A DNA stretch of 64,000 nucleotides from Chitinophaga pinensis. GTDB taxonomy: Bacteria > Bacteroidota > Bacteroidia > 2-12-FULL-35-15. The DNA is taken from contig CAMCYR010000002.1 of the NCBI GenBank assembly GCA_945885475.1, positions 37,633 to 101,632 of the forward strand, written 5' to 3'. The notes beneath the pieces are model-generated. The model ran no database searches. It was given only the letters and a program-made list of their open reading frames with translations, and was not told the origin of the DNA. Positions 2,262-30,866 of this stretch are shown one piece after another (position 1 is the first letter of the stretch; every line of letters begins with the position of its first letter). Made by a program: the position numbers and the translations under genes.

Positions 2262-4322
2262 TTACGATTTTTTTGGTTTTAATAATGTATATATTTCTTC
2301 CTGAGCGCGTATTTTAACTTTGCTGTTTGATTTACGATACGAATTGTTTTGAGTACTTCCCAATATTCTTACCTTAGTATTATCAGACCAAAGAATATTA
2401 ATTATTTTTTTTAATTGTTGCTGTATCTCTTTGTCATAAATTGGTACTGCAACTTCAGAGCGATGATCAAGATTTCTTGTCATCCAGTCGGCCGAAGATA
2501 TGAAGTATTTTTCATCACCGTTGTTGTGAAATATGAACACTCTGCTGTGTTCCAAATATTTATCTACAATACTGATTGCTTCGATGTTTTCGCTCAACCC
2601 ACTCACTCCAGCCACCAGTGAACAGATTCCGCGGACAATCAATTTAATTTTAACGCCTTCCGCACTTGCCTCATAAAGTTTTCGAATCATTTCGTCATCT
2701 ACCAAATTGTTTAATTTCAAGATGATAGAAGCCGGTTTGTTCGCTTTAGCATTCTGTATTTCTTTGTTGATAAGTTGCACCAATCGTTTACGCATGAAAA
2801 AGGGAGAAACCAACAAATGTTTATAAATCCCCCCTTTGAAATTGTCTAAATAAAAGTCAAACACTTTTTCTATTTCTTCGGTTATTATTTTATTTGACGT
2901 AAGTAATGTTTGGTCTGTATACACTTTAGATGTATCACCATTAAAATTTCCGGTTCCGATATGCGCATAGTGATTTATTTTTCCAGATTCTTTTCGCGTG
3001 ATCAGAAAAAGTTTCGAATGTACTTTTAGACCTGGAACGCCATATATTACTTTTGCGCCTTCTTCTTGCAACTTTCCCGACCAGTATATGTTTGCTTCTT
3101 CATCAAATCGCGCCTGCAACTCAATTACAGCGGTGACTTGCTTCCCGTTTTTTAGCGCATTGATCAAGGCCTTAACTATATTTGAGTTTTTGGCAACGCG
3201 ATAAAGCGTTATTCGAATGCTCTGAACTTTAGGATCAATAGATGCTTCTCTCAGAAGATCGATGATATGATCAAATGATTGATAAGGATAAGTTAATAAA
3301 ACATCTTTCTTTTTTATCACCTTAATAATAGATGATTGATCTTTTAGATCCGGATGTTTTAATGGAATATTTTTTTTATAACTAAGGTCGGGATGCCCGA
3401 TATTCGGAAAGGAAATAAAATCTTTAAAATTATGATAGCGTCCCCCGGGGATCGGATTGTCGTCTTTTCCCAGCTTAATTTTTTTCATTATAAAATCAAG
3501 CATATCCGGAGCAATCTCACTATCATATACAAGTCGTACCGGTTGTCCGGTTTTCCGCGCCTTTAATCCTTTTGATATTTTTTCAACAAAACTTTTTGAA
3601 AGGTCGGTATCAATATCTATTTCAGCATCTCTCGTTAGTTTGATGTTATAAGATTCGATATAGTCGTGGTCAAAATTCTGAAAAATATCATCCAAACAAT
3701 AACGGATAACATCGTCTAAAAGAAGAATATAATTTTTATCTTTTTCTTTTGGCAACACAACAAACCTGGAAATTGTATCTGTTGGAACTTCAATAATAGC
3801 GTATTTGTTCTTTTTCGATGAATCCTTTCGTCCAAGTTTAATGATCAAATATCCTAACCGGTCTTTCAGGTAGGGAAAGGGTGATGGGCTATCAAGCATT
3901 ATTGGAAACAATGACCCTTTCACCTTTTCTCTGAAATACTCTTTTACAAAGGTTCCCTGTGCAGGCGATAATTGCTTCTCATTGATGATGGAAATATTTT
4001 GTTTATTAAGCTCACGTATAATAACCTGATATATATGTTCAAATTTATCTTGTTGAGCAATTACCGCTTGTTTAATTTTTTCCAACAGCCGAACAGGGTT
4101 TTCCCCCATTAATTCTTCTGCTTTTTTTTGATGCTTTACAACGCGTTTAAGGGTTGCAACTCGAACTCTAAAAAACTCATCCCTGTTATTAGAGTAAATA
4201 CCTAAAAATTTTAAGCGTTCAATCAGGGGTACGGTTTTGTCCTCCGCTTCTTGCAGAACCCTGTCATTAAATGCTAACCAGCTTAATTCACGATTAATTA
4301 AAACAACATTTTTTTTTAGCAT
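2262..4322 (-). CDS. ppk: Polyphosphate kinase 1
   Basis: The protein is 686 aa. The N-terminus INRELSWLAFNDRVLQEA and the overall PPK1 architecture are recognisable, including the conserved PLD-like C-terminal domains. Confidence 0.95.
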   Translation of the reverse strand: MLKKNVVLINRELSWLAFNDRVLQEAEDKTVPLIERLKFLGIYSNNRDEFFRVRVATLKRVVKHQKKAEELMGENPVRLLEKIKQAVIAQQDKFEHIYQVIIRELNKQNISIINEKQLSPAQGTFVKEYFREKVKGSLFPIMLDSPSPFPYLKDRLGYLIIKLGRKDSSKKNKYAIIEVPTDTISRFVVLPKEKDKNYILLLDDVIRYCLDDIFQNFDHDYIESYNIKLTRDAEIDIDTDLSKSFVEKISKGLKARKTGQPVRLVYDSEIAPDMLDFIMKKIKLGKDDNPIPGGRYHNFKDFISFPNIGHPDLSYKKNIPLKHPDLKDQSSIIKVIKKKDVLLTYPYQSFDHIIDLLREASIDPKVQSIRITLYRVAKNSNIVKALINALKNGKQVTAVIELQARFDEEANIYWSGKLQEEGAKVIYGVPGLKVHSKLFLITRKESGKINHYAHIGTGNFNGDTSKVYTDQTLLTSNKIITEEIEKVFDFYLDNFKGGIYKHLLVSPFFMRKRLVQLINKEIQNAKANKPASIILKLNNLVDDEMIRKLYEASAEGVKIKLIVRGICSLVAGVSGLSENIEAISIVDKYLEHSRVFIFHNNGDEKYFISSADWMTRNLDHRSEVAVPIYDKEIQQQLKKIINILWSDNTKVRILGSTQNNSYRKSNSKVKIRAQEEIYTLLKPKKS

Positions 4323-5259: not shown

Positions 5260-6066
5260 ATGTTATTTTTGAGGATAATTTTCCCAGTATTTCTTTTTTC
5301 TTTTTTAGGAATTGTTATTTCTAACAAAACAATAGTTCTTGAAGCGCCCTTCTTAAAAAGATTTTCCGACAGCACAAAAATATTTTCTCAAAAATTTTAT
5401 CCGAAAACAAATAAAAAAGATCAAGTTATTAAACACGTGGCTTATACGCTTTGTTACGATGAAAATTTTGAACAGGCAAAATGGGTTGCATATCTTCTCA
5501 CTTCTAAAATGTGCAGCAATAAAGAGGAGGAGCGAACGGATAACTTCAGAGAAGACCCATCTGTCATGACTGGTTCTGCTGTTCCTAATGACTATAAAAA
5601 ATCAGGTTACGATCGCGGTCATCTCTGTCCTGCAGGTGATATGGGCTGGAGTGAAGCAGCAATGAGCGAGTCTTTTTTTATGAGTAATATGAGTCCTCAG
5701 CAGCCGAAGTTTAATCGTGGTATCTGGAAAACCCTTGAAATGCAGGTGCGTGAATGGGCTAAAAAAGAAGAAGAGCTCTATGTCATAACTGCTGGCGTTT
5801 TAGAGAAAGGTTTACCATCCATCGGAGTAAAAAACAAAGTTGCTGTTCCTAAATATTACTATAAAATTATTTTGGATGTATTTGGTTCCGAAAAAAAAGC
5901 AATCGCATTTGTAATGCCGAATGAAGGAAGTAAAGAATCTATTTTCTTTTACGCTGTTTCGGTAGATTCTGTTGAACGCTTAACACAAATTAACTTTTTC
6001 CCTGCCTTGCCGGATACCCTCGAAAACAAATTAGAATCGCATTTGAACGTTGATCTCTGGAAATAG
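5260..6066 (+). CDS. Secreted DNA/RNA non-specific endonuclease (Serratia NucA-like, Endonuclease_NS)
   Basis: There is an N-terminal hydrophobic signal and the DRGHLCPAGD active-site motif with its conserved downstream N (…SNMSPQ…). Confidence 0.85.
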   Translation: MLFLRIIFPVFLFSFLGIVISNKTIVLEAPFLKRFSDSTKIFSQKFYPKTNKKDQVIKHVAYTLCYDENFEQAKWVAYLLTSKMCSNKEEERTDNFREDPSVMTGSAVPNDYKKSGYDRGHLCPAGDMGWSEAAMSESFFMSNMSPQQPKFNRGIWKTLEMQVREWAKKEEELYVITAGVLEKGLPSIGVKNKVAVPKYYYKIILDVFGSEKKAIAFVMPNEGSKESIFFYAVSVDSVERLTQINFFPALPDTLENKLESHLNVDLWK

Positions 6067-6309
6067 AAATTGGTGCTTTAAAATAAATTTTTTAAATAGA
6101 AAATCTATCTAACAAAACAGACTCTTTTTAGTGGTAATCTTTGCATTTTCTTTCATATTAAAAGCGCAGGATAATAAAGTTGAATAGACCATTAAACTAA
6201 TTGGAGTAGCTGAAATGCAAATGGTTTTTGTTTATAAGTCCTTCACAATTGAGCTATTGCTCAACGAACATAATTGTTCTAGGAAGTTAGCTGTAGTCCG
6301 ATAAAATAC

Positions 6310-16087: not shown

Positions 16088-16465
16088 ATGTTATTAGCCG
16101 TTCAAAGCACTCCCCTTGATTTTCTTCCTATCGCCTTGATGTTTGTTGTAGCCCTTGGTTTTGTTGTGATTATGCTCTTTTTAACACATCAACTCGGACC
16201 AAAGAAGAAATCAAAAGTAAAATTGGAAACTTTTGAGTGTGGTATCGAAGTTCAAGGAAACGCTCGTTTGCCTTTTTCAATTAAGTACTTTCTTGTCGCA
16301 ATTTTATTTGTTTTGTTTGATGTTGAGGTGATTTTCATGTATCCATGGGCAGTAAATTTTAAACAATTAGGATTAATCGGATTTGTTGAAATGCTCACAT
16401 TTGTTGGCTTTTTATTGGTAGGCTTTTATTATATCCTTAAAAAAGGCGCATTGAAGTGGGAATAG
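16088..16465 (+). CDS. nuoA: NADH-quinone oxidoreductase subunit A
   Basis: A small protein with three transmembrane segments, carrying the conserved ...FECG...FLVAILFVLFDVEV.FMYPWAV motif. Confidence 0.95.
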   Translation: MLLAVQSTPLDFLPIALMFVVALGFVVIMLFLTHQLGPKKKSKVKLETFECGIEVQGNARLPFSIKYFLVAILFVLFDVEVIFMYPWAVNFKQLGLIGFVEMLTFVGFLLVGFYYILKKGALKWE

Positions 16466-16528: not shown

Positions 16529-16578
16529 AAAGAGAGTAGAGAGTTCGTGTATTAATAAAATTATTGTTAGAACAAATT

Positions 16579-16608
16579 CCCCCTTTGAAAAAGGGGGTTA
16601 GGGGGATT
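16579..16608 (+). repeat. GGGG-hairpin intergenic repeat (nuoA-nuoB gap)
   Basis: CCCCCTTTgaaAAAGGGGG tta GGGGGATT. Confidence 0.5.
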
Positions 16609-16638: not shown

Positions 16639-17199
16639 ATGAGTACAATAGAAAAATCAAAAGTAGATCTGAAAGCAGATGCTCCTCCGGGAATTGAAGG
16701 ACCTGGATTTTTTGCAACTCGTATTGATAAAGTTGTCGGAATGGCGCGTGCTAATTCTCTGTGGCCACTGCCTTTCGCTACCTCTTGTTGTGGAATCGAA
16801 TTTATGGCAACCATGGCTTCTACCTACGACTTGGGTCGTTTTGGCTCGGAGCGTTTAAGTTTCTCGCCCCGTCAGGCAGATTTACTGATGGTGATGGGTA
16901 CCATCTCCAAAAAAATGGCTCCTGTTTTACGTCAGGTTTACGAACAAATGGCCGAACCTAAATGGGTTTTGTCAATGGGCGCTTGTGCTTCCAGCGGTGG
17001 AATTTTTGATACATACAGTGTTTTGCAAGGAATCGACAGAATTATTCCTGTTGATGTATATATTCCCGGTTGTCCTCCCCGTCCCGAACAAGTTTTGGAC
17101 GGCATCCTTCAGATTCAGAAACTCGTGGAATCAGAATCAACTAGACGTAGAGATAGTCCTGAATACAAAGCGTTGTTGAATAAATATGGAATTGAGTAG
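16639..17199 (+). CDS. nuoB: NADH-quinone oxidoreductase subunit B
   Basis: [18 protein letters not shown]...GCPPRPE (the N2 cluster ligands). Confidence 0.95.
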
Positions 17200-17283: not shown

Positions 17284-17322
17284 GCCCTCACCTTGAACAA
17301 GGAGAGGGGCCAGGGGTGAGGT
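17284..17322 (+). repeat. GGGG-hairpin intergenic repeat (nuoB-nuoC gap)
   Basis: CCCTCACCttgaacaaGGAGAGGGG cca GGGGTGAGG. It is related to the copy at 20231. Confidence 0.5.
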
Positions 17323-17834
17323 CTATGGAAAAAGAAGCATTATTAATAGCAGTTGAAAGTAAACTGAAGGCTCAATTCGGAGAGGGTTTCATCTCTTCGA
17401 AATTGAATGTTGACTTTCCTGAATTTACTGTAAAAAGAGATCTTATCTGTGAGGTTGTAAAGTTTCTTTACGACGATGAAGAGCTGGCTTTTCAGTACTT
17501 AACAACTATGGCAGCCATTCATTATCCCGAAAATCAGGGTCACGAGTTTGCTGTAATGTACCAATTACACAACCTTCCAAAGAACTTCCGCATCCGCTTG
17601 AAAATTGAGTTCAGCAACAGCGATGTGAATGTTCCTTCTATAACTTCTGTGTTTTCCGCTGCAAATTGGATGGAACGTCAGGAGTTCGATTTCTTTGGAA
17701 TCATCTTCAGAGGACATCCGAATTTAAAACGTATTTTAAATATGGATGAGATGAACTATCACCCGATGAGAAAAGAATATGCTCTCGAAGACGGTACACG
17801 TGAAGATAAAGATGATAAAATGTTCGGACGATAA
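17316..17834 (+). CDS. nuoC: NADH-quinone oxidoreductase subunit C (the 30-kDa subunit, separate from NuoD)
   Basis: The Complex1_30kDa motifs are present (…WMERQEFDFFGI…). The position within the operon also fits. Confidence 0.9.
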   Translation: MRSMEKEALLIAVESKLKAQFGEGFISSKLNVDFPEFTVKRDLICEVVKFLYDDEELAFQYLTTMAAIHYPENQGHEFAVMYQLHNLPKNFRIRLKIEFSNSDVNVPSITSVFSAANWMERQEFDFFGIIFRGHPNLKRILNMDEMNYHPMRKEYALEDGTREDKDDKMFGR

Positions 17835-17856
17835 AAGAAGAAAGTTAAATGAGAAG

Positions 17857-18290
17857 AAAGTCAAAAGTCAAAAGAGCTTTTGATGGCTGAAGGGATTTAT
17901 GGAATACGAAAAGGATATTCGGGTTAGGACAAAGAAGTTTGCGGTTAGAATAATTAAGTTAGTACTTGAATTAAAAGTTCAGGGCGTTGAATATTCGTTA
18001 AGAGATCAAATATTGCGTAGCGGCACATCTGTGGGAGCAAATGTTAGAGAAGGGAAAGCGAGTAGTTCAAAAAAGGAGTTGATAAGGTATTATGAAATTG
18101 CTTTACGTTCAGCAAATGAAACAGATTTTTGGATGGAAACAATAGAAGAGGGATATGATTTAGATAGTAGTTTAATGAAAAACGATAAAAGTGAATTATT
18201 AGAAATTTCAAAAGTACTTGGAACAATAATTATTAACTTGAAGAAATAAGGTAAAGCCTTTTTGACTTTTGACTTAAAAATTTTTGACTT
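17857..18290. mobile_element. ~430-bp cassette bounded by 17-18 bp terminal inverted repeats, carrying a four-helix-bundle gene and inserted between nuoC and nuoD
   Basis: The left arm AAGTCAAAAGTCAAAAG (17859-17875) is the reverse complement of the right arm CTTTTTGACTTTTGACTT (18258-18275). An extra TTTTTGACTT lies at 18281-18290. Confidence 0.5.
17899..18249 (+). CDS. Four-helix-bundle protein of the 23S rRNA intervening-sequence (IVS) family, TIGR02436-like
   Basis: The protein is 116 aa. ...[21 protein letters not shown]...[28 protein letters not shown] matches the family pattern. Confidence 0.75.
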
Positions 18291-18300
18291 ACAGAAGCTA

Positions 18301-19518
18301 ATGAGTAAAGAAAAAAATATAAACACAAATAAAGAGGTTGTCGAGAAAGAATATTCTACGCTGAACCTTGGTCCTACACATCCCGCAACACACGGTATTT
18401 TCCAGAATGTGTTGAAGATGGATGGTGAAATAATAATGGATTCAGAGTCTACGGTTGGATACATCCACCGCGCTTTTGAGAAATTAGCAGAAAGAAGACC
18501 GTATTACCAGATCACTCCGATCACCGATCGTTTGAATTATTGCTCTTCACCAATCAATAACATGGGTTGGCATATGACAGTTGAAAAATTGTTGGCAATA
18601 GAAATTCCTAAGCGTGTTCAATACCTTCGGGTAATCATTATGGAGTTGGCGCGTATTTCTGATCACGTTATTTGTAACAGTGTTATTGGAGTGGATACAG
18701 GTGCAATGACTGGTTTTTTGTATATTTTCCAGATGCGTGAGCGCATTTATGATATATATGAAGAATTGTGTGGTGCGCGTTTGACAACTAATATTGGTCG
18801 TATTGGCGGACTTGAAAGAGACTTTTCTCCAAAAGCATGGGACCTGCTGGAGAAATTTTTAATTGACTTTCCACCAGCATTAAAAGAGTTTGAAAGCTTA
18901 TTGATGCGGAATAGAATTTTTATGGATCGCACCATTGCTTGTGGTGGCATCAGTGCCGAAAGAGCATTGAATTATAGTTTCTCAGGACCAAACTTACGTG
19001 CTGCAGGAGTTGATTATGATGTGCGTGTAATGAATCCATATTGCTCTTACGAAGAATTCGAGTTTATTATTCCTGTTGGAACAAATGGTGATACCTATGA
19101 TCGTTTCATGGTGCGCCAGCAAGAAATGTGGGAGAGTGTGAAGATCATTCATCAGGCAATTGCAAAAATTAAGAAAGAACCTGCAGGTATATTCCATGCG
19201 GATGTTCCTGAATTTTACCTTCCTCCGAAAGAAGAAGTTTATAACAACATGGAAGCATTGATCTATCACTTTAAAATTGTGATGGGTGAAACGGAAATTC
19301 CGAAAGGGGAAGTGTATCACGCTGTTGAGGGAGGTAACGGTGAAGTAGGTTATTATCTGATCAGTGATGGAGGAAGAACACCCTACCGTTTGCATATGCG
19401 CAGACCGTGTTTTATTTATTACCAGGCTTACGCGGAAATGATTAGAGGTGGAATGCTATCTGATGCAATTTTAACTATGAGTAGCATGAATGTGATTGCT
19501 GGAGAATTGGACGCATAA
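18301..19518 (+). CDS. nuoD: NADH-quinone oxidoreductase subunit D (the 49-kDa subunit)
   Basis: Carries the conserved NuoD (49-kDa subunit) sequence motifs. The ORF track starts at 18262, but that ATG lies inside the inverted-repeat arm. The more likely start is MSKEK at 18301. Confidence 0.9.
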
Positions 19519-19639
19519 TGAATAAAAATAAATTTATTATTTTATTTGCTAGTGCATCTTGTTTTTCAAAAATAGGAAGCTTCGATTTGCCCAACCTAAA
19601 ATCGATCTCCAGGATTAATTTCTTGAAACAGAATATAAC

Positions 19640-20179: not shown

Positions 20180-20230
20180 TGAAAAAGAATTTGATAATAG
20201 AACTAAAATCATATAACTAAACTAAATCCT

Positions 20231-20267
20231 TCCCCCCTCTCCAGCTGGAGAGGGGTTGGGGGTGAGG
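20231..20267 (+). repeat. GGGG-hairpin intergenic repeat (nuoE-nuoF gap)
   Basis: CCCCTCTCCagctGGAGAGGGG is a perfect palindrome, followed by ttg GGGGTGAGG. Confidence 0.5.
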
Positions 20268-20272
20268 CAATA

Positions 20273-21616
20273 ATGGGCAAAAAACTATTAATTCATAACG
20301 ACAACGTTCCGGGAATCGCTACACTTGAAGTGTATCGCCAGAATGGTGGATATGCTTCTGTTGAGAAGGCATTGAAAACAATGACACCTGCTGATGTAGT
20401 CGAAGAGGTGAAGAAATCAGGACTAAGGGGTCGTGGTGGTGCAGGTTTCCCTACAGGAATGAAATGGAGTTTCCTTGCGAAGCCGGAAGGTGTTGAGCGT
20501 TACCTTGTTTGTAATGCCGATGAATCTGAACCAGGAACATTCAAAGATCGTTACTTGATGGAAAAAATTCCACATGCTTTGATTGAAGGAATGATTACTT
20601 CGTCCTATGCATTAGGTGCAAAAACATCTTACATCTATATCCGTGGTGAATATTTTTACGTGGCTCGCATTGTTGAGAAAGCTATTGATGAAGCATATGC
20701 TGCGGGATTGCTTGGTAAAAATATTTTAGGCACCAACTTCTCTCACGATTGCTATGTGCAAGTGGGTGCTGGTGCATATATCTGCGGTGAAGAAACTGCT
20801 TTGTTAGAATCATTAGAAGGCAAGCGTGGTAATCCCCGTATCAAGCCGCCATTCCCGGCCATCGCTGGTTTGTATGGTTGTCCTACTGTTGTAAACAATG
20901 TTGAAACAATTGCTGCTGTTTGTCCAATCGTGATGATGGGTGGTGATGAATATGCTAAAATTGGTATCGGAAGAAGTACTGGTACTAAATTAATTTCTGC
21001 ATCCGGACATATCAATAAACCGGGTGTTTATGAAATTGAATTGGGATTGCCGGTTGAAGAATTTATATACTCAGAAGAATATTGCGGTGGTATTATCAAT
21101 GGAAGAAAACTAAAAGCGGTTGTTGCCGGTGGATCTTCTGTTCCTATTTTACCTGCTGAATTAATTCTTAAAAACGATAAAGGTGAAGCTCGTCTGATGT
21201 CATACGAGTCATTGAGTGAAGGGGGCTTTGCAACAGGAACAATGCTTGGATCCGGGGGATTCATTGTGTACGATGAAACAACTAGTATCGTAAAAAATCT
21301 CTATACGTTTGCCCGTTTCTATCATCACGAAAGTTGTGGACAATGTTCTCCTTGCCGTGAAGGGACAGGTTGGATGGAAAAAATTCTTCACCGTATCGTT
21401 GAAGGTCAAGGGAAACCAAGTGATGTTGATCTACTTTGGGATATTCAAAGAAAAATTGAAGGAAATACAATTTGTCCTTTAGGCGATGCTGCTGCATGGC
21501 CCGTAGCAAGTGCGATCCGTCACTTCCGTCACGAGTTTGAAGAATATATCAATCACCCGGAAAGAATTAAAGATGTTAAACATTATTACAGTGTGCATCA
21601 GTTGGCTGGAGCATAA
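20273..21616 (+). CDS. nuoF: NADH-quinone oxidoreductase subunit F (51 kDa; FMN, NADH and 4Fe-4S binding)
   Basis: GRGGAGFPTG is the FMN-binding motif. ESCGQCSPCREG is the N3 cluster. Confidence 0.95.
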   Translation: MGKKLLIHNDNVPGIATLEVYRQNGGYASVEKALKTMTPADVVEEVKKSGLRGRGGAGFPTGMKWSFLAKPEGVERYLVCNADESEPGTFKDRYLMEKIPHALIEGMITSSYALGAKTSYIYIRGEYFYVARIVEKAIDEAYAAGLLGKNILGTNFSHDCYVQVGAGAYICGEETALLESLEGKRGNPRIKPPFPAIAGLYGCPTVVNNVETIAAVCPIVMMGGDEYAKIGIGRSTGTKLISASGHINKPGVYEIELGLPVEEFIYSEEYCGGIINGRKLKAVVAGGSSVPILPAELILKNDKGEARLMSYESLSEGGFATGTMLGSGGFIVYDETTSIVKNLYTFARFYHHESCGQCSPCREGTGWMEKILHRIVEGQGKPSDVDLLWDIQRKIEGNTICPLGDAAAWPVASAIRHFRHEFEEYINHPERIKDVKHYYSVHQLAGA

Positions 21617-21640
21617 TTGTAAATTGTAAAAGATAAAAAG

Positions 21641-22639: not shown

Positions 22640-23686
22640 ATGACATTAGATTTTCTGATTTATAAAATTATTTTAGTGTTGATTGTTTTTTCAATCACAT
22701 TATTGGTGGCGACATACAGCACCTATGCCGAAAGAAAAATTGCGGCTTTCCTTCAGGATCGTATCGGTCCGGACAGAGCTGGCCCATTCGGAATTCTTCA
22801 GCCATTAGCCGATGCTGTTAAAATGTTCATGAAGGAAGAAATTATTCCGAACGTTTCTAACAAGGCGCTCTTTGTTTTAGGTCCCGGAATTTGCATGCTT
22901 ACCGCTTGTATGACGGGTGTTATTATTCCATGGGGTAAAACAATTAACATAGGTGGAACCGATTATCCCTTGCAAATTGCAGATGTAAATATCGGGATCC
23001 TCTATTTGTTTGGCGTACTTTCATTAGGGGTCTATGGTATTATGATTGGAGGTTGGGCATCAAATAATAAATACTCATTGCTTGGTGCTATCCGCGCTTC
23101 TTCACAAATGATTAGCTACGAAGTTGCAATGGGAATCTCCATTATTGCTTTGGTAATGACCACGGGAACGTTGAGTACCGCTGAAATTGCAGCTCAACAG
23201 CATGGATGGCACTGGAACGTGTTGATCCAGCCTCTGGGTTGTCTGATCTTTATTATCTGCGCATTTGCTGAAACAAATCGCGCTCCTTTCGATTTACCTG
23301 AGTGTGAAACAGAACTTGTTGGCGGTTACCATACTGAATACAGTTCAATGAAACTTGGTTTGTTCTTGTTCTCTGAATATATCAACATGTTCATTTCCTC
23401 CGCTGTGATTGCTACTTTTTATTTTGGTGGGTACAACATGCCCTTGATCGGACGATGGGTGCATGATCCGAATGCGTTAGCGATTCTTGGAATTGTTTTC
23501 CTATTCATGAAAATTGTCGGATTTATATTTTTCTTCATGTGGGTGCGCTGGACATTACCCCGCTTCCGCTATGATCAACTGATGAATCTGGGATGGAAGA
23601 TTTTAATTCCTTTGTCAATATTGAACCTGGTATTAACAGGCGCATGGATGATGCGTCATGAGATCATGGTTTATTTTGTAAAATAG
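22640..23686 (+). CDS. nuoH: NADH-quinone oxidoreductase subunit H
   Basis: RKIAAFLQDRIGPDRAGPFG...ETNRAPFDLPE.E.ELVGGYH.EYSS. Confidence 0.95.
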   Translation: MTLDFLIYKIILVLIVFSITLLVATYSTYAERKIAAFLQDRIGPDRAGPFGILQPLADAVKMFMKEEIIPNVSNKALFVLGPGICMLTACMTGVIIPWGKTINIGGTDYPLQIADVNIGILYLFGVLSLGVYGIMIGGWASNNKYSLLGAIRASSQMISYEVAMGISIIALVMTTGTLSTAEIAAQQHGWHWNVLIQPLGCLIFIICAFAETNRAPFDLPECETELVGGYHTEYSSMKLGLFLFSEYINMFISSAVIATFYFGGYNMPLIGRWVHDPNALAILGIVFLFMKIVGFIFFFMWVRWTLPRFRYDQLMNLGWKILIPLSILNLVLTGAWMMRHEIMVYFVK

Positions 23687-24267
23687 TTGGCAGTTGGCAA
23701 TTAAAATAGTTGGCAAAGGAGAAGTAATAAAATAATAGTTCTTTTAAATATATGGGAAGTTTCAGAGATTTGAATGTTTACAAAAAAGCATTTGATTTAT
23801 CAATGCTAATTTTTAAAGAATCAAAAAAATTTCCAAATGAAGAGAAATTTGGTCTAACAAGTCAAATTAGAAGATCATCTCGTTCTGTTTGTTCGAATGT
23901 TGGTGAGGGTTATAGAAAAAGACTTTACCCTGCTCATTTTGTAAGCAAATGTTCAGATGCAGACATGGAAAACAGCGAGACTCAAGTATGGTTAGATTTT
24001 GCTTTGGCTTGTGAATATATAGAGAAAGAGCAGTTTGATGAATATTTAAAACGTTCAGAAGAAATAGGTAGGATGATCGGGCACATGATCGAGAATCCAG
24101 AAAAATATAAAGGAAAATAAATGCAGTTGGCAATTAAAAAAGTTGGCAATTCGCAAAAATAAAATTTAAGAAACAGATTAAGTATAAACAGGTTGACATT
24201 AGAAGAGTTTGCTTACAAAATGACTGAAATCATTTTCCAACTTTTTTAATTGCCAACTGCCAACTGA
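23685..24267. mobile_element. ~580-bp cassette carrying a second four-helix-bundle gene. It is flanked by direct repeats and ends in a 144-bp element with 28-bp terminal inverted repeats.
   Basis: The direct repeat is AGTTGGCAGTTGGCAATTAAAAtAGTTGGCAA (23685-23716), matching CAGTTGGCAATTAAAAAAGTTGGCAA (24124-24150). Its reverse complement CCAACTTTTTTAATTGCCAACTGCCAACTG lies at 24238-24267, right against the nuoI start. Confidence 0.5.
23752..24120 (+). CDS. Four-helix-bundle protein of the 23S rRNA IVS family (TIGR02436-like), second copy
   Basis: ...NVYKKAFDLSMLIF...KFPNEEKFGLTSQIRRSSRSVCSNVGEGYRKR...ENSETQVWLDFALACEYI is a canonical pattern. The protein has diverged from the copy at 17899. 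Confidence 0.8.
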   Translation: MGSFRDLNVYKKAFDLSMLIFKESKKFPNEEKFGLTSQIRRSSRSVCSNVGEGYRKRLYPAHFVSKCSDADMENSETQVWLDFALACEYIEKEQFDEYLKRSEEIGRMIGHMIENPEKYKGK

Positions 24268-24271
24268 TAAA

Positions 24272-24883
24272 ATGATGTTAACAAATAGATCGCAAGTTGT
24301 TGTTAAAAAGGAAATGACATTCATTGAACGGATGTATCTGCCGGCTATTTTTAGCGGTATGCTCATTACCTTTAAACACCTTTTCAAAAAATCGGCAACG
24401 ATTAAGTATCCGGAACAAACACGTGAGTTTAGTAAAATTTACCGCGGACAACATGTTTTAAAACGTGATGAAAAAGGTGCCGAACGTTGCACGGCGTGCG
24501 GATTATGCGCTGTTGCCTGTCCAGCAGAAGCTATCACGATGATTGCGGCAGAAAGAAAGCCTGGTGAAGAAGCTTTATACAGAGAAGAAAAATATGCTGC
24601 AACATATGAAATCAATATGCTGCGTTGCATCTTTTGTGGCGACTGTGAAGAAGCTTGTCCGAAAGAAGCGATTTTCTTAACCGATAGAAAAGTAGACAGC
24701 TTCTATACACGTAAAGAATTTATTTATGGAAAAAGTATTTTGGTGGAAGGACTTGAAAGCGACAAGCGTGTTGATGTAAGTGTCCGCGAAACAAAAGCTG
24801 TGGAAGAATTTAAAAAACACAAAGAGTTTGCTCACAACGAAACATACGATAAAAATAAAAAGAAAACAGTTGCTGGACACTAG
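24272..24883 (+). CDS. nuoI: NADH-quinone oxidoreductase subunit I (two 4Fe-4S clusters)
   Basis: CTACGLCAVACP and CIFCGDCEEACP. Confidence 0.95.
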   Translation: MMLTNRSQVVVKKEMTFIERMYLPAIFSGMLITFKHLFKKSATIKYPEQTREFSKIYRGQHVLKRDEKGAERCTACGLCAVACPAEAITMIAAERKPGEEALYREEKYAATYEINMLRCIFCGDCEEACPKEAIFLTDRKVDSFYTRKEFIYGKSILVEGLESDKRVDVSVRETKAVEEFKKHKEFAHNETYDKNKKKTVAGH

Positions 24884-25858: not shown

Positions 25859-27757
25859 ATGATAAAATTAGTTTGGTTAGTTCCGCTTCTCCCGCTTATA
25901 GGATTTATAATCATCGGATTATTCGGAAAAAAATTATCGAAGGGAATCGTTGGGATAATTGGCAGCGGTGCTGTATTAGGTGCCTTTGCAATTGCTCTTG
26001 GAATATTTTTTGAATTGAAAGGGAGTGTCCAAAAAGAACACACCATCGATTTGTTCAATTGGATCTCTGCCGGTAAGTTGTCTATTCCATTCTCCTTTCT
26101 GATTGACCCTCTGTCTTCCTTATTCTTATTGATTATCACTGGGATCGGATTTTTGATCCATGTATACTCTACCGGTTATATGAGCCATGACGAAGGCTTT
26201 TTCCGTTTCTTCGCATACTTGAATCTTTTCATCTTCTTCATGTTGTTGTTGGTATTGGGCTCTAATTACCTGATCATGTTTGTTGGTTGGGAAGGCGTTG
26301 GATTGTGCTCTTATCTATTGATTGGCTTCTGGTTTAAAAATACAGCGTATAATAATGCTGCAAAAAAAGCATTCATCATGAACCGTGTAGGTGACTTAGG
26401 TTTCCTGTTAGGAATTATACTGATTTTTGTAACCTTTGGAAGCATTGGATATCACGATGTTTTTGAACAAGCAAAAAACATGGCTTCCGGAAATGCAACC
26501 TTAACAGCTATTGCTTTATTGTTGTTTGTTGGTGCAATGGGAAAAAGTGCCCAGCTTCCTTTATACACGTGGTTGCCCGATGCGATGGCTGGACCAACTC
26601 CTGTATCAGCTTTAATTCACGCTGCTACCATGGTAACAGCCGGTATCTATATGATTGCTCGCTCAAATATTTTATACACACTTTCTCCGGATGCAATGAA
26701 TGTTGTTGCGATCATTGGAGTGTGTACAGCCTTGTTTGCTGCAACAATCGGACTGGCACAAAACGATATTAAAAAAGTATTGGCGTATTCGACCGTTTCA
26801 CAATTAGGATATATGTTCCTTGCTCTTGGTGTTGGTGCTTATACCGGAGCTGTTTTCCATGTGATGACGCACGCGTTCTTCAAAGCATTATTATTCCTTG
26901 GTGCAGGAAGTGTTATCCATGCGATGAGTGGTGAACAGGACATTCGTAAAATGGGAGGATTGAAAAAATACATCTCTACAACACACATTACATTTTTATT
27001 AGGAACACTTGCTATTGCTGGTTGTTTCCCTTTCTCAGGATTCTTTTCCAAAGACGAAATTCTTGCTCATGCATGGGAACATAATAAGCTGCTTTGGTTC
27101 TTGGGAATTTTAGGTGCAGCGATGACGACCTTCTATATGTTCCGTTTATATTTTCTTACTTTCCACGGTAAATTCAGAGGAACGCATGAACAAGAGCACC
27201 ACCTGCACGAGTCGCCAAAGTCAATGACGATTCCCTTGATCGTTTTAGCGATACTTTCAGTCGTAGGTGGTTTGATCGGTATTCCGGAAGCATTGCATGG
27301 CACGCATTATTTAGAGGAATTCTTAAGCCCTGTATTTGAATCTTCTTCTTTCCGTCTGGTTCACCATTTATCGCATGAAACAGAATATTTATTGATGGGT
27401 ATGGCAACATTAGTAATGATTGTTGCGATCTATTTCGCACACTCAATCTATGTTAAGAAAAACACAGTACCTGCTGCAGAAGGTGAAGAATTACAACCAC
27501 TTCATAAATTGGTTTACAATAAGTATTGGATTGATGAATTGTATGAAAGCCTGATTACGAAACCTCTGAATTTAATTTCAGAAGCATTCTACAAGCTGGT
27601 AGATAATCAAATTGTTGATGGAATTGTAAATGGTGTAGGTTCTCTTATAACATGGCTAAGTAGCGTTCTCCGCCTTGCTCAAACAGGTAACATCGGATTT
27701 TATGTGTTTGTAATGGTCATTAGTATTGTTTTGATTTTGTTTACGCAACTGTTTTAG
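25859..27757 (+). CDS. nuoL: NADH-quinone oxidoreductase subunit L
   Basis: A 632-aa antiporter-like subunit carrying the conserved NuoL motif WLPDAMAGPTPVSALIHAATMVTAG. Confidence 0.95.
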   Translation: MIKLVWLVPLLPLIGFIIIGLFGKKLSKGIVGIIGSGAVLGAFAIALGIFFELKGSVQKEHTIDLFNWISAGKLSIPFSFLIDPLSSLFLLIITGIGFLIHVYSTGYMSHDEGFFRFFAYLNLFIFFMLLLVLGSNYLIMFVGWEGVGLCSYLLIGFWFKNTAYNNAAKKAFIMNRVGDLGFLLGIILIFVTFGSIGYHDVFEQAKNMASGNATLTAIALLLFVGAMGKSAQLPLYTWLPDAMAGPTPVSALIHAATMVTAGIYMIARSNILYTLSPDAMNVVAIIGVCTALFAATIGLAQNDIKKVLAYSTVSQLGYMFLALGVGAYTGAVFHVMTHAFFKALLFLGAGSVIHAMSGEQDIRKMGGLKKYISTTHITFLLGTLAIAGCFPFSGFFSKDEILAHAWEHNKLLWFLGILGAAMTTFYMFRLYFLTFHGKFRGTHEQEHHLHESPKSMTIPLIVLAILSVVGGLIGIPEALHGTHYLEEFLSPVFESSSFRLVHHLSHETEYLLMGMATLVMIVAIYFAHSIYVKKNTVPAAEGEELQPLHKLVYNKYWIDELYESLITKPLNLISEAFYKLVDNQIVDGIVNGVGSLITWLSSVLRLAQTGNIGFYVFVMVISIVLILFTQLF

Positions 27758-27781
27758 AATTTAGAATTTATTTATAAAGAT

Positions 27782-29333: not shown

Positions 29334-30701
29334 ATGAAAGCATTAATATTACTTTCTTCATTAGGTGTAATTGCATTATTGGCTGAGATCTTCAGCTTTA
29401 AAAAACTCTTGTATCCTATCGTGTTGCTTGGTTTAATTACCACATTCGTATTAAATATGTTTGATTGGGATACCAACAAGTTGTATTTTAAGATGATGCA
29501 GTTTGATAACTATGCCGTAGCATTTACTGCAGTTATTTTAGTTGTTGCTTTTCTGTGGTTCATAATGGCGGAAGGATTTTTTAAAGAAGAATCCAACTTA
29601 ACCGATCATTTTGCTTTAGTGCTATTTGCATTGGTGGGTGCGGTAATGATGGTTTCCTATACAAATATGGCTATGTTATTTTTGGGAATCGAGATTTTGT
29701 CCATTCCAATGTACATTTTAGCAGGAAGTAATAAAACGGATGTCTCCTCCAACGAAGCGGCATTCAAATATTTAATAATGGGTGCTTTCGCTACCGGTTT
29801 TTTATTGTTTGGTATCGCATTGGTATACGGAGCAACCGGCTCATTTGATCTTTCCGAGATCGCTGCAGCCGTTTCCGGTGGAACTGCTTTATCTTCCATT
29901 TTTTATGTTGGTGTGTTGTTGATGTTAGTCGGAATGGCATTCAAAGTTTCTGCTGCTCCTTTTCACTTTTGGGCTCCGGATGTTTATCAGGGTGCACCAA
30001 CTGTTGTTACTGCATTTATGGCAACCATTGTTAAAACAGCAGCATTCGCAGCATTTTTAAGATTGTTCTCTACTACATTTAGTGGTGTTAGCGAAACGTG
30101 GATGCAAACTGTTTGGGTGATGGCTGCTTTAACATTACTGGTAGGTAATATTACTGCAGTAATGCAAACCAGCACAAAACGAATGTTAGCGTATTCAAGT
30201 GTTGCACATGCAGGTTACATGTTATTGGCCTTATTAGCTGCTAACAATTACTCGAACAGTGCTATTTTGTATTACGCATCAGCGTATTCTATTGGCTCAA
30301 TTGCAACATTTGCAATCGTAAATATTATTTCAGATGCTAAAAATTCGGATGGTGTGGATGCTTTCAACGGTTTGTCAAAAACAAATCCGATGCTTGCAAT
30401 TGTCATGACCATCGCGCTGTTATCATTGGCTGGTATTCCGCCTACAGCTGGTTTTTTCGCTAAGTATTTTATATTTACTTCTGCGTTCATGGCAGGGAAT
30501 ATAGGACTAGTGCTGATCGCGATCATCGCTTCTTTAATCGGAGTTTATTACTATTTCCGCCTGATCATTGCAATGTATTTCAAAGAAAGTGACGGACAAA
30601 CAATTGCTGTTGAATCCAATCACAAAATAGTATTGGTCATTATCGCAATTGCTATCGTTGCTTTAGGTCTCTTTCCGGATTATATTATCGGTTTGTTGTA
30701 A
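29334..30701 (+). CDS. nuoN: NADH-quinone oxidoreductase subunit N
   Basis: An antiporter-like subunit with ...FHFWAPDVYQGAP... and AYSSVAHAGY. Confidence 0.95.
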   Translation: MKALILLSSLGVIALLAEIFSFKKLLYPIVLLGLITTFVLNMFDWDTNKLYFKMMQFDNYAVAFTAVILVVAFLWFIMAEGFFKEESNLTDHFALVLFALVGAVMMVSYTNMAMLFLGIEILSIPMYILAGSNKTDVSSNEAAFKYLIMGAFATGFLLFGIALVYGATGSFDLSEIAAAVSGGTALSSIFYVGVLLMLVGMAFKVSAAPFHFWAPDVYQGAPTVVTAFMATIVKTAAFAAFLRLFSTTFSGVSETWMQTVWVMAALTLLVGNITAVMQTSTKRMLAYSSVAHAGYMLLALLAANNYSNSAILYYASAYSIGSIATFAIVNIISDAKNSDGVDAFNGLSKTNPMLAIVMTIALLSLAGIPPTAGFFAKYFIFTSAFMAGNIGLVLIAIIASLIGVYYYFRLIIAMYFKESDGQTIAVESNHKIVLVIIAIAIVALGLFPDYIIGLL

Positions 30702-30832
30702 AACAAGAAGTGTTTTCGATACGCTCCAATTCTTCCGCTAATTGAACTTACAAATACAAGGGCACTGCGAGTAATTCCGATAAAAGGAGGAGTGTATCGA
30801 GAAGTGCTTGTATCAAGAACCGATTTCAAATG

Positions 30833-30866
30833 AAAGCTTCTCAATCTGAGAAGCTTTTTTTATTTT
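30833..30866 (+). terminator. Rho-independent terminator ending the nuo operon
   Basis: AGCTTCTCA-atc-TGAGAAGCT hairpin followed by TTTTTTTATTTT. Confidence 0.75.

Follow-up and report, generated by a model that had tools for sequence, protein, structure and literature searches.

What is a small gene for a four-helix-bundle protein, bracketed by inverted repeats, doing between nuoC and nuoD in the nuo operon of Chitinophaga pinensis? This question was raised by a preliminary description of a 64,000-nt stretch of DNA (GenBank assembly GCA_945885475.1, contig CAMCYR010000002.1, positions 37,633 to 101,632 of the forward strand), which as a whole is hereafter called the window. Intervening sequences (IVSs) in 23S rRNA that carry a conserved open reading frame (ORF) have been a puzzle since the early 1990s, and the same module, composed of the gene, heptamer arrays and a closing stem, is seen here in a protein-coding operon. 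We propose, with moderate confidence, that the 441-466-nt insert is a promoterless PF05635 cassette of the IVS type with heptamer arms, which is transcribed with the nuo genes, whose arms pair and are cut by RNase III, and which is an old resident of nuo operons.

An armed cassette between nuoC and nuoD

The insert, designated cassette 1, and its gene, designated gene 1, comprise the following features (window positions).

17835-18300, + strand: whole nuoC-nuoD spacer in its filled state, 466 nt, standing in place of the 12-nt spacer AATTGTGATGGA
17842-17849, + strand: outer-left degenerate heptamer unit AAGTTAAA, with 18283-18290 as partner in the predicted fold
17857-17880, + strand: left arm, tandem heptamers AAAGTCA AAAGTCA AAAG, then AGCTTT
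17899-18249, + strand: four-helix-bundle gene 1, 116 aa, intact ORF, PF05635/TIGR02436
18253-18275, + strand: right arm, AAAGCC TTTTTGAC TTTTGAC TT, complement of the left arm
18281-18290, + strand: third right-hand unit TTTTTGACTT, the outer-right pairing partner, ending 10 nt before the nuoD ATG
18301-19518, + strand: nuoD from its true start, ATG 18301, 405 aa, start as in the strains with an empty site

Gene 1 was flanked by nuoC (PF00329) and nuoD (PF00346). Its product matched PF05635 with 71.2 bits (cut-off 33.8) over residues 10-107, and TIGR02436, 'four helix bundle protein', with 86.3 bits (cut-off 24), in agreement with the preliminary description of an IVS-type gene between these two nuo genes. 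A profile of the gene 1 subfamily matched PDB entries 2RLD (E=5e-28) and 2GSC (E=2.8e-07). Judged by these matches, gene 1 can be assigned to the PF05635/TIGR02436 family, and its product is predicted to be homologous to a solved four-helix-bundle structure. There was no bAvd match in gene 1, and when matched to Pfam and TIGR02436, the 116-aa protein showed no motif of a recombinase or nuclease.

The core arms, AAGTCAAAAGTCAAAAG at 17858-17874 and CTTTTTGACTTTTGACTT at 18258-18275, are reverse complements except for one additional T, and thus bracket the gene as had been described. A repeat search returned 23-nt arms (17858-17880 and 18253-18275) with 91% complementarity and a separation of 372 nt. 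The arms are tandem heptamers (GTCAAAA and its complement), with (AAAGTCA)x2.4 at 17857-17874, and the left arm starts 23 nt after the nuoC stop codon. The minimum-free-energy fold of the spacer has the paired arms as its closing helix (computed duplex energy -32 kcal/mol), and an outer helix is formed by 17842-17849 and 18283-18290. The third right-hand unit is kept in all cassettes of the subfamily. The ATG of gene 1 lies 19 nt beyond the left arm, hence the closing stem does not reach the start codon.

The arms are AT-rich and repetitive, so chance complementarity between low-complexity A-rich and T-rich spacers had to be considered. However, the ungapped inverted-repeat score of cassette 1 was 17, a value reached by none of 404 displaced control windows (99th percentile 12), cross-locus controls also spoke against chance (see the survey below), and the arms are conserved in homologous cassettes with a compensating change. 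A scan of the window pointed in the same direction: it contains 11 perfect tandem heptamer arrays, of which 7 are located in nuo spacers, and an inverted partner was present only for the 4 arrays that flank the two four-helix-bundle genes described here. Chance complementarity is refuted by these controls and is hardly credible. The observation of an armed cassette between nuoC and nuoD is confirmed as real and far from chance.

The absence of an obvious terminator, which had also been noted, could be corroborated: no terminator-like site was found in cassette 1, and the strong terminator of the operon comes only after nuoN, at 30832-30858. An Rfam search of the nuo operon revealed no known RNA family in cassette 1 or in the second cassette. 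The claim that the inverted-repeat arm overlaps the first in-frame ATG of nuoD turned out to be wrong. The overlapped codon is an in-frame TTG at 18262, where the ORF listing and gene callers start nuoD (418 aa), whereas the first in-frame ATG, at 18301, follows the last repeat unit at a distance of 10 nt. The calling of nuoD 13 codons too long, into the right arm (18262-18300), is a systematic annotation artefact of such cassettes.

Likeness to 23S rRNA intervening sequences

The IVS in helix 45 of the Coxiella burnetii 23S rRNA is 428 nt long and contains an S23p ORF of this family (PMC4990558). The inverted repeats at its ends pair to give a 28-bp stem within which RNase III cuts, three tandem heptamers GACAGAT, with a copy number that varies among strains, are located just before the ORF, and the ORF itself is decaying and apparently not translated (PMC4990558). 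As cited in the same paper, Leptospira also has an IVS with a conserved ORF, which according to an old idea served mobility, and for a Leptospira 23S rRNA IVS of the same build, action of RNase III on the helix is reported there as an experimental finding (PMC4990558).

Cassette 1 matches the anatomy of the Coxiella IVS feature by feature, location excepted. With 23S IVSs it shares the size (~430-440 nt), a PF05635 ORF of ~116-120 aa, transcription from a host promoter, terminal inverted repeats with a stem of at least 20 bp, tandem heptamers of strain-variable copy number just upstream of the ORF, a sporadic distribution among strains, and decay of the ORF in some copies. Unlike 23S IVSs, it occupies the intergenic spacer of a protein-coding operon and not an rRNA helix, its ORF is intact and under purifying selection, and its arms abut stop and start codons. 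Because of this location, cassette 1 is not an IVS in the strict sense; the data support a discrete, promoterless cassette of the 23S-IVS type.

Excision by RNase III has been shown for 23S IVSs, and for the nuo cassette it is proposed by analogy. The A-rich upstream arm would pair with the U-rich downstream arm in the nuo transcript, in cassette 1 over 17 bp, followed by a short mismatch and 5 bp, plus the outer 8 bp. With arms that abut the stop codon of nuoC and the start codon of nuoD, the helix would loop the gene out and bring the host genes together again. A perfect RNA duplex of 17-23 bp, or of 23 bp or more in the second cassette, may well be a substrate for RNase III, as in rRNA IVSs, and cleavage would release the mRNA of the small gene and split the nuo transcript at two cassette points. 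The A-rich upstream arm probably also provides the small gene with its translation initiation region. On the evolutionary side, the cassette family would have resided in the nuo operons of this Bacteroidota lineage for a long time, with a few changes of junction; its cassettes would decay to pseudogenes and ORF-less hairpins, and strains would gain or lose them when whole spacer alleles are exchanged by homologous recombination.

A second cassette with unrelated arms

The same operon carries a second four-helix-bundle gene, designated gene 2, in a cassette with the following features.

23685-24268, + strand: cassette 2, between nuoH and nuoI, same design as cassette 1
23685-23720, + strand: left arm, AGTTGGC units, overlapping the last bases of nuoH
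23752-24120, + strand: four-helix-bundle gene 2, 122 aa, PF05635 113.7 bits
24123-24149, + strand: direct copy of the left arm, directly after the gene 2 stop codon
24230-24265, + strand: right arm, 36 nt, 92% complementary to 23685-23720, ending 6 nt before the nuoI ATG

Gene 2 is 23% identical to gene 1, and its match to bAvd is sub-threshold (34.5 bits, cut-off 40). The computed energy of the arm duplex was -47 kcal/mol, and the closing helix dominates the fold (z = -7). The direct copy of the left arm can instead pair locally with the right arm (27 nt, 96%, -38 kcal/mol). The two cassettes have the same build and unrelated arm sequences, which rules out a shared transposase-binding end and indicates that complementarity and heptamer periodicity are the conserved properties.

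This result bears on the possibility that the cassettes are non-autonomous transposons with a passenger gene, comparable to miniature inverted-repeat transposable elements (MITEs), on whose terminal inverted repeats a transposase would act in trans. Like MITEs, they are small, have inverted ends, contain no transposase or other enzyme for their own movement, and are present in some strains and absent from others. However, the two cassettes of this genome have arms unrelated to each other, and arms in general vary by locus and are internally repetitive, so that the ends are heptamer arrays and are not common to the copies. Target-site duplication is absent, and the cassette takes the place of the whole spacer, from stop to start codon. 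Moreover, the cassettes carry a conserved ORF in strict co-orientation with the host genes, and the window contains no further occurrence of the arm sequence. The unrelated arms and the lack of target-site duplication largely refute a MITE-like transposon, and we consider this explanation very unlikely. Of note, the preliminary description had suggested a search for other copies of the cassette 1 arm; none was found within the 64-kb window, which is uninformative since arms are cassette-specific, and for the same reason it is ill-posed to take the lack of further arm copies as a refutation.

The two cassettes also differ in their history. For this and for the strain comparison below, we used contigs of the same species and of a 94-95%-identical sister lineage, obtained from exact-protein look-ups. 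Compared to the sister lineage, cassette 2 differs at only 4 of 584 nt (99.3% identity across lineages), whereas its flanks are 94-95% identical, with 59-66 differences in 1045 nt for nuoH and 28 in 612 nt for nuoI, and the tract of low divergence (23628-24291) closely fits the cassette. That cassette 2 is far less diverged than its flanks points to its recent spread from one lineage to another, either on a short recombination tract or through a homing-like process. In contrast, the divergence of cassette 1 from its counterpart in L101 equals that of the flanks, which is consistent with vertical descent.

Heptamer arms across the protein family

To place the two cassettes in the family, we surveyed 80 loci that encode relatives, one genome per species, of which 75 were usable. 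They came from Bacteroidota, Nostoc/Dolichospermum, Pyrinomonadaceae, Clostridia, Planctomycetota, Opitutales, Chloroflexi, Desulfobacterota, candidate phyla and others. At each locus, the 150 nt upstream of the ORF were compared with the 300 nt downstream of it, and the best ungapped inverted repeat shared by the two gave the score. The controls were the 404 displaced windows of the same loci mentioned above, and pairings in which the upstream and downstream regions came from different loci. A score of at least 13 was found in 81% of the 75 loci and in 0.7% of the displaced windows, with medians of 18 and 8, respectively. Cross-locus pairings reached this score in only 7% of cases, thus the complementarity of the arms is locus-specific. 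At least 13 distinct heptamer classes had an exact inverted partner, and the best period of the upstream arm was 7 in 58 of 61 loci. The upstream arm is also strand-asymmetric, with 47% A, 27% T, 19.5% G and 7% C. The gene was co-oriented with both neighbours in 50 loci and opposite to both in 5. The left arm started a median of ~4 nt after the upstream stop codon, and the right arm ended a median of 11 nt before the downstream ATG.

The family comprises 19,459 representatives (50% identity clusters, E <= 0.001), and is found in Bacteroidota, Cyanobacteria, Acidobacteriota, Clostridia, Planctomycetota and others. The heptamer-arm architecture is the norm for this very large family across many phyla, and the arm sequence is not conserved. 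We found no description of a heptamer-armed architecture for non-rRNA members in the searchable literature, which is not proof of absence, and the family-wide rule appears to be previously undescribed. The arms belong to the four-helix-bundle gene and not to inserts in general, since heptamer arms were absent from the other ORFs checked in nuo spacers of related strains, which comprised ORFs of 139, 193/213 and 546 aa, a lipoprotein, a methyltransferase-like ORF and an MNT-HEPN pair.

The sampled host operons include topoisomerase genes of the gyrB/gyrA type, helicase-methylase and hsdM restriction genes, ychF-lgt, and an ABC transporter with a peptidase. None of 20 family loci tested was located in rRNA, and 3 adjoin tRNA genes. 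In these three distant loci the cassette lies directly beside the tRNA gene (L090 2871-2955, L089 2533-2612 and L055 3411-3495), tRNA being another kind of heavily processed transcript. In L090 (2974-3006 / 3381-3413), L043, L062, L076 and L059, the left arm extends into the four-helix-bundle gene's start codon. This suggests that in such loci the closing stem would sequester the gene's own ATG, allowing stem-dependent control of translation.

A subfamily residing in nuo operons

Every relative of gene 1 with 53-99% identity that could be placed lies in a nuo operon of Bacteroidota (over 20 loci), and together they occupy five different junctions.

A-B junction: L102 (protein 82% identical)
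C-D junction: the window, L101, L106, L021 and L124-L126
D-E junction: L023-L025, L104, L105 and L111
E-F junction: L059
F-G junction: L014 (pseudogene), L127, L129, L103, L022, L060, L028 and L034

A distant member from Ignavibacteria (L081) sits at A-B. The ratio of nonsynonymous to synonymous divergence (dN/dS) of gene 1 was 0.057 compared to L101 and 0.081 compared to L102, the latter at a dS of 1.26; L103 was left out since the frames were misaligned. The intact gene copies are under purifying selection. Decayed forms also occur: the copies in L106, L022, L060 and at F-G in L014 are pseudogenes, and hairpins of the same arms without an ORF were found at C-D in L127 (2685-2765), before nuoF in L028 and after an unrelated ORF in L104. 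The number of heptamer copies varies, which is compatible with slippage.

These findings raise the question whether gene 1 has been domesticated, with a protein that functions in the expression or assembly of complex I, and arms that are kept by the host as a cis-regulatory device for processing or translational control. The confinement of all located relatives to nuo operons would fit such a role, as would the dN/dS of 0.06-0.08 over a dS above 1 and the presence of two such genes in one operon. However, near-identical strains lack the cassette, pseudogene copies are common, and the junction varies. In addition, the wider family is found in unrelated operons (restriction-modification, topoisomerase and tRNA neighbourhoods), and the Coxiella homolog is apparently not translated (PMC4990558). 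On balance, we think that domestication is unlikely.

Some of these operons contain other elements. L028, Chitinophagaceae bacterium LGM1 (CP075895.1), combines a full cassette at F-G with its ORF-less heptamer hairpin before nuoF, and its nuoH-nuoI spacer (5546-6183) contains a nucleotidyltransferase-like ORF followed by a HEPN/DUF86-like ORF, a pair that, judged by eye, resembles an MNT-HEPN toxin-antitoxin pair. The nuoK-nuoL spacers of L127 (10420-10516) and L129 (9886-9979) carry heptamer arrays of the AGTACAA type with a partial inverted partner and no ORF.

Presence and absence among strains

The nuoC-nuoD junction is filled in the window and in 10 comparison contigs (L001-L010). It is empty in L014, with flanks that are 99.5% identical, and in L011 and L013 of the sister lineage (94%), in which nuoC and nuoD are separated by the 12-nt gap TAA-AATTGTGATGGA-ATG. 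The comparison of nuoC-nuoD gaps proposed in the preliminary description thus established that closely related strains lack the cassette. The nuoF-nuoG junction is polymorphic as well. In the window it is empty and contains two AATTGTA heptamers, and in L015 there is one. L014, L005 and L020 carry at this junction a 70%-identical paralog of cassette 1 with a broken ORF and intact arms, and the homology between both spans 17851-18291 of the window. The arms of the paralog, AAAGTCAAAATTCAAAAGAAA and TTTCTTTTGAATTTTGACTTT, differ from those of cassette 1 by a G>T change compensated by a C>A change. In L002 (13723-15363) and L003 (13596-15236), the junction holds a secreted-looking ORF of 546 aa with no Pfam match.

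When filled and empty C-D and F-G junctions were compared, no convincing target-site duplication or leftover spacer was found, and the alleles differ across the entire spacer, from stop to start codon. Substitutions are clustered beside the junctions: L014 has six differences within the last 190 nt of nuoC, and L014, L005 and L002 show ~5% divergence over ~700 nt upstream of the F-G junction, compared to a background of 0.5-1% away from the junctions. Such clusters suggest imported recombination tracts, hence the strain polymorphism is best explained by homologous recombination that swaps old, diverged spacer alleles. Fresh transposition as the cause of presence and absence among strains was rejected in view of the substitution clusters that flank the junctions. 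Of the small mobile cassette that had been envisaged initially, the discreteness, the variability among strains and the existence of a paralog at F-G therefore stand, whereas the arms are not transposon-like ends and the polymorphism reflects recombination.

RNA or DNA as the level at which the arms act

Several observations weigh against the IVS-type cassette proposed here. Among 115 mismatches in the stems, counted on the sense strand, there were 21 G:T/T:G and 20 A:C/C:A pairs. Since G:U pairs are not in excess, pairing may be kept at the DNA level or by a copying process. Several stems of the subfamily are short and AU-rich, with scores of 10-14. Furthermore, long vertical persistence together with strong purifying selection (dS > 1, dN/dS ~0.08) would not usually be expected of a purely selfish passenger, which hints at a function relevant to the host. 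Finally, a role of the arms in DNA, or a copying process that keeps them matched, is a serious rival.

In the latter case, the inverted heptamer arrays would be a substrate for recombination or replication, the cassette would be copied as DNA, and RNA pairing would be incidental. The arrays might act as a hairpin or cruciform in single-stranded DNA, or as sites bound by a pentameric four-helix-bundle protein or by a host enzyme. The stems without wobble excess agree with this, and so does the perfect covariation of the arms in many loci, which looks as though it was templated. Changes in heptamer copy number by slippage (see also PMC4990558), the 99.3% identity of cassette 2 between flanks of 94-95% within the low-divergence tract, and the presence of relatives at five different nuo junctions can be explained in the same way. 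However, target duplications and a common end sequence are lacking, and the protein has no motif of a recombinase or nuclease. The orientation bias and the strand asymmetry of the arms are unexpected for a symmetric DNA substrate, and ordinary homologous recombination explains the strain polymorphisms. We therefore judge an element that acts at the DNA level to be rather unlikely, its status as a rival notwithstanding.

Comparison with other gene-carrying elements

Avd is an accessory protein of diversity-generating retroelements, with a homologous four-helix-bundle fold and family (PMC10053308). The likeness of the window genes to Avd (bAvd, PF22296; PDB 4DWL) consists of this homologous fold and family and of the sub-threshold match of gene 2. 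Unlike the avd genes of diversity-generating retroelements, the window genes lie inside a housekeeping operon, and no reverse transcriptase, template repeat or variable repeat was found beside gene 1 or 2, whose neighbours are nuo genes. Integron gene cassettes, consisting of an ORF and an attC site, are similar in that a promoterless ORF is co-oriented with an external promoter and imperfect inverted repeats are present. They differ in that the repeat halves of the nuo cassettes enclose the ORF and are not joined in a single attC at its 3' end, and in that the nuo cassettes have no integrase, attI, cassette array or conserved R boxes. The coexistence of intact copies, pseudogenes, ORF-less relics and empty sites is reminiscent of the cycle of invasion, fixation, decay, loss and reinvasion of homing endonuclease genes, and as in homing elements, one cassette is far less diverged than its flanks, but there is no recognisable nuclease in the cassette.

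A bolder view would be that heptamer-armed PF05635 cassettes are phylum-spanning, self-propagating 'operon introns', whose pentameric four-helix-bundle protein recognises its own arrays in RNA or DNA and promotes copying of the cassette into spacers of transcribed operons and into rRNA helices, possibly with a reverse transcriptase in trans, as for Avd, so that 23S IVSs and Avd would be specialised offshoots. We regard this as speculative and quite improbable.

Other features of the nuo spacers

The window contains a complete nuo operon on the + strand, identified by ORFs and Pfam matches, with nuoA at 16088-16465, nuoB at 16639-17199, nuoC at 17316-17834 and nuoD at 18301-19518, followed by nuoE to nuoN, and ending at 30701. 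Apart from the cassettes, its spacers contain several smaller elements. The one relevant to the strain comparison is the following.

21617-21640, + strand: nuoF-nuoG spacer, empty in the window, 24 nt, solo tandem heptamer (AATTGTA)x2

This array (21615-21630) is one of several solo heptamers without an inverted partner, the others being located in the nuoL-M spacer (27753-27770, TTTAGAA x2.5) and the nuoA-B spacer (16531-16544, AGAGAGT x2). Such arrays may mark places where cassettes have been lost, or may be spacer elements prone to slippage. GC-rich hairpin repeats, built as CCCCTCTCC..GGAGAGGGG followed by TTGGGGGTGAGG-like tails, are present in the nuoA-B (16560-16600), nuoB-C (17285-17324) and nuoE-F (20228-20268) spacers. 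They are missing in the sister lineage, whose B-C and E-F gaps measure 2 nt and 8 nt, respectively, and similar ones are found in the E-F spacer of L104. They look like a small repeat family, of the repetitive extragenic palindrome (REP) or MITE type, that also colonises nuo spacers. The nuoD-nuoE spacer (19519-19639) is a deletion remnant of the 193/213-aa ORF, of which start and end segments are still recognisable. This ORF has a signal-peptide-like N-terminus, and is intact in L011 (5372-5953) and L013 (5030-5671).

Implications

For genome annotation, cassettes of this type mislead gene callers, as the start of nuoD illustrates. If the arms are RNase III sites, the cassettes would fragment the mRNAs of core operons, including nuo, topoisomerase and restriction-modification operons, and would add a hidden layer to the processing of operons. 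The function of the Avd-like protein and of the heptamers can be studied on the many naturally varying arms, on pseudogenes whose arms are intact, on relics that lack the ORF, and on a complete genome with several of these elements. In this way, the heptamer-arm rule makes the old IVS puzzle approachable by experiment.

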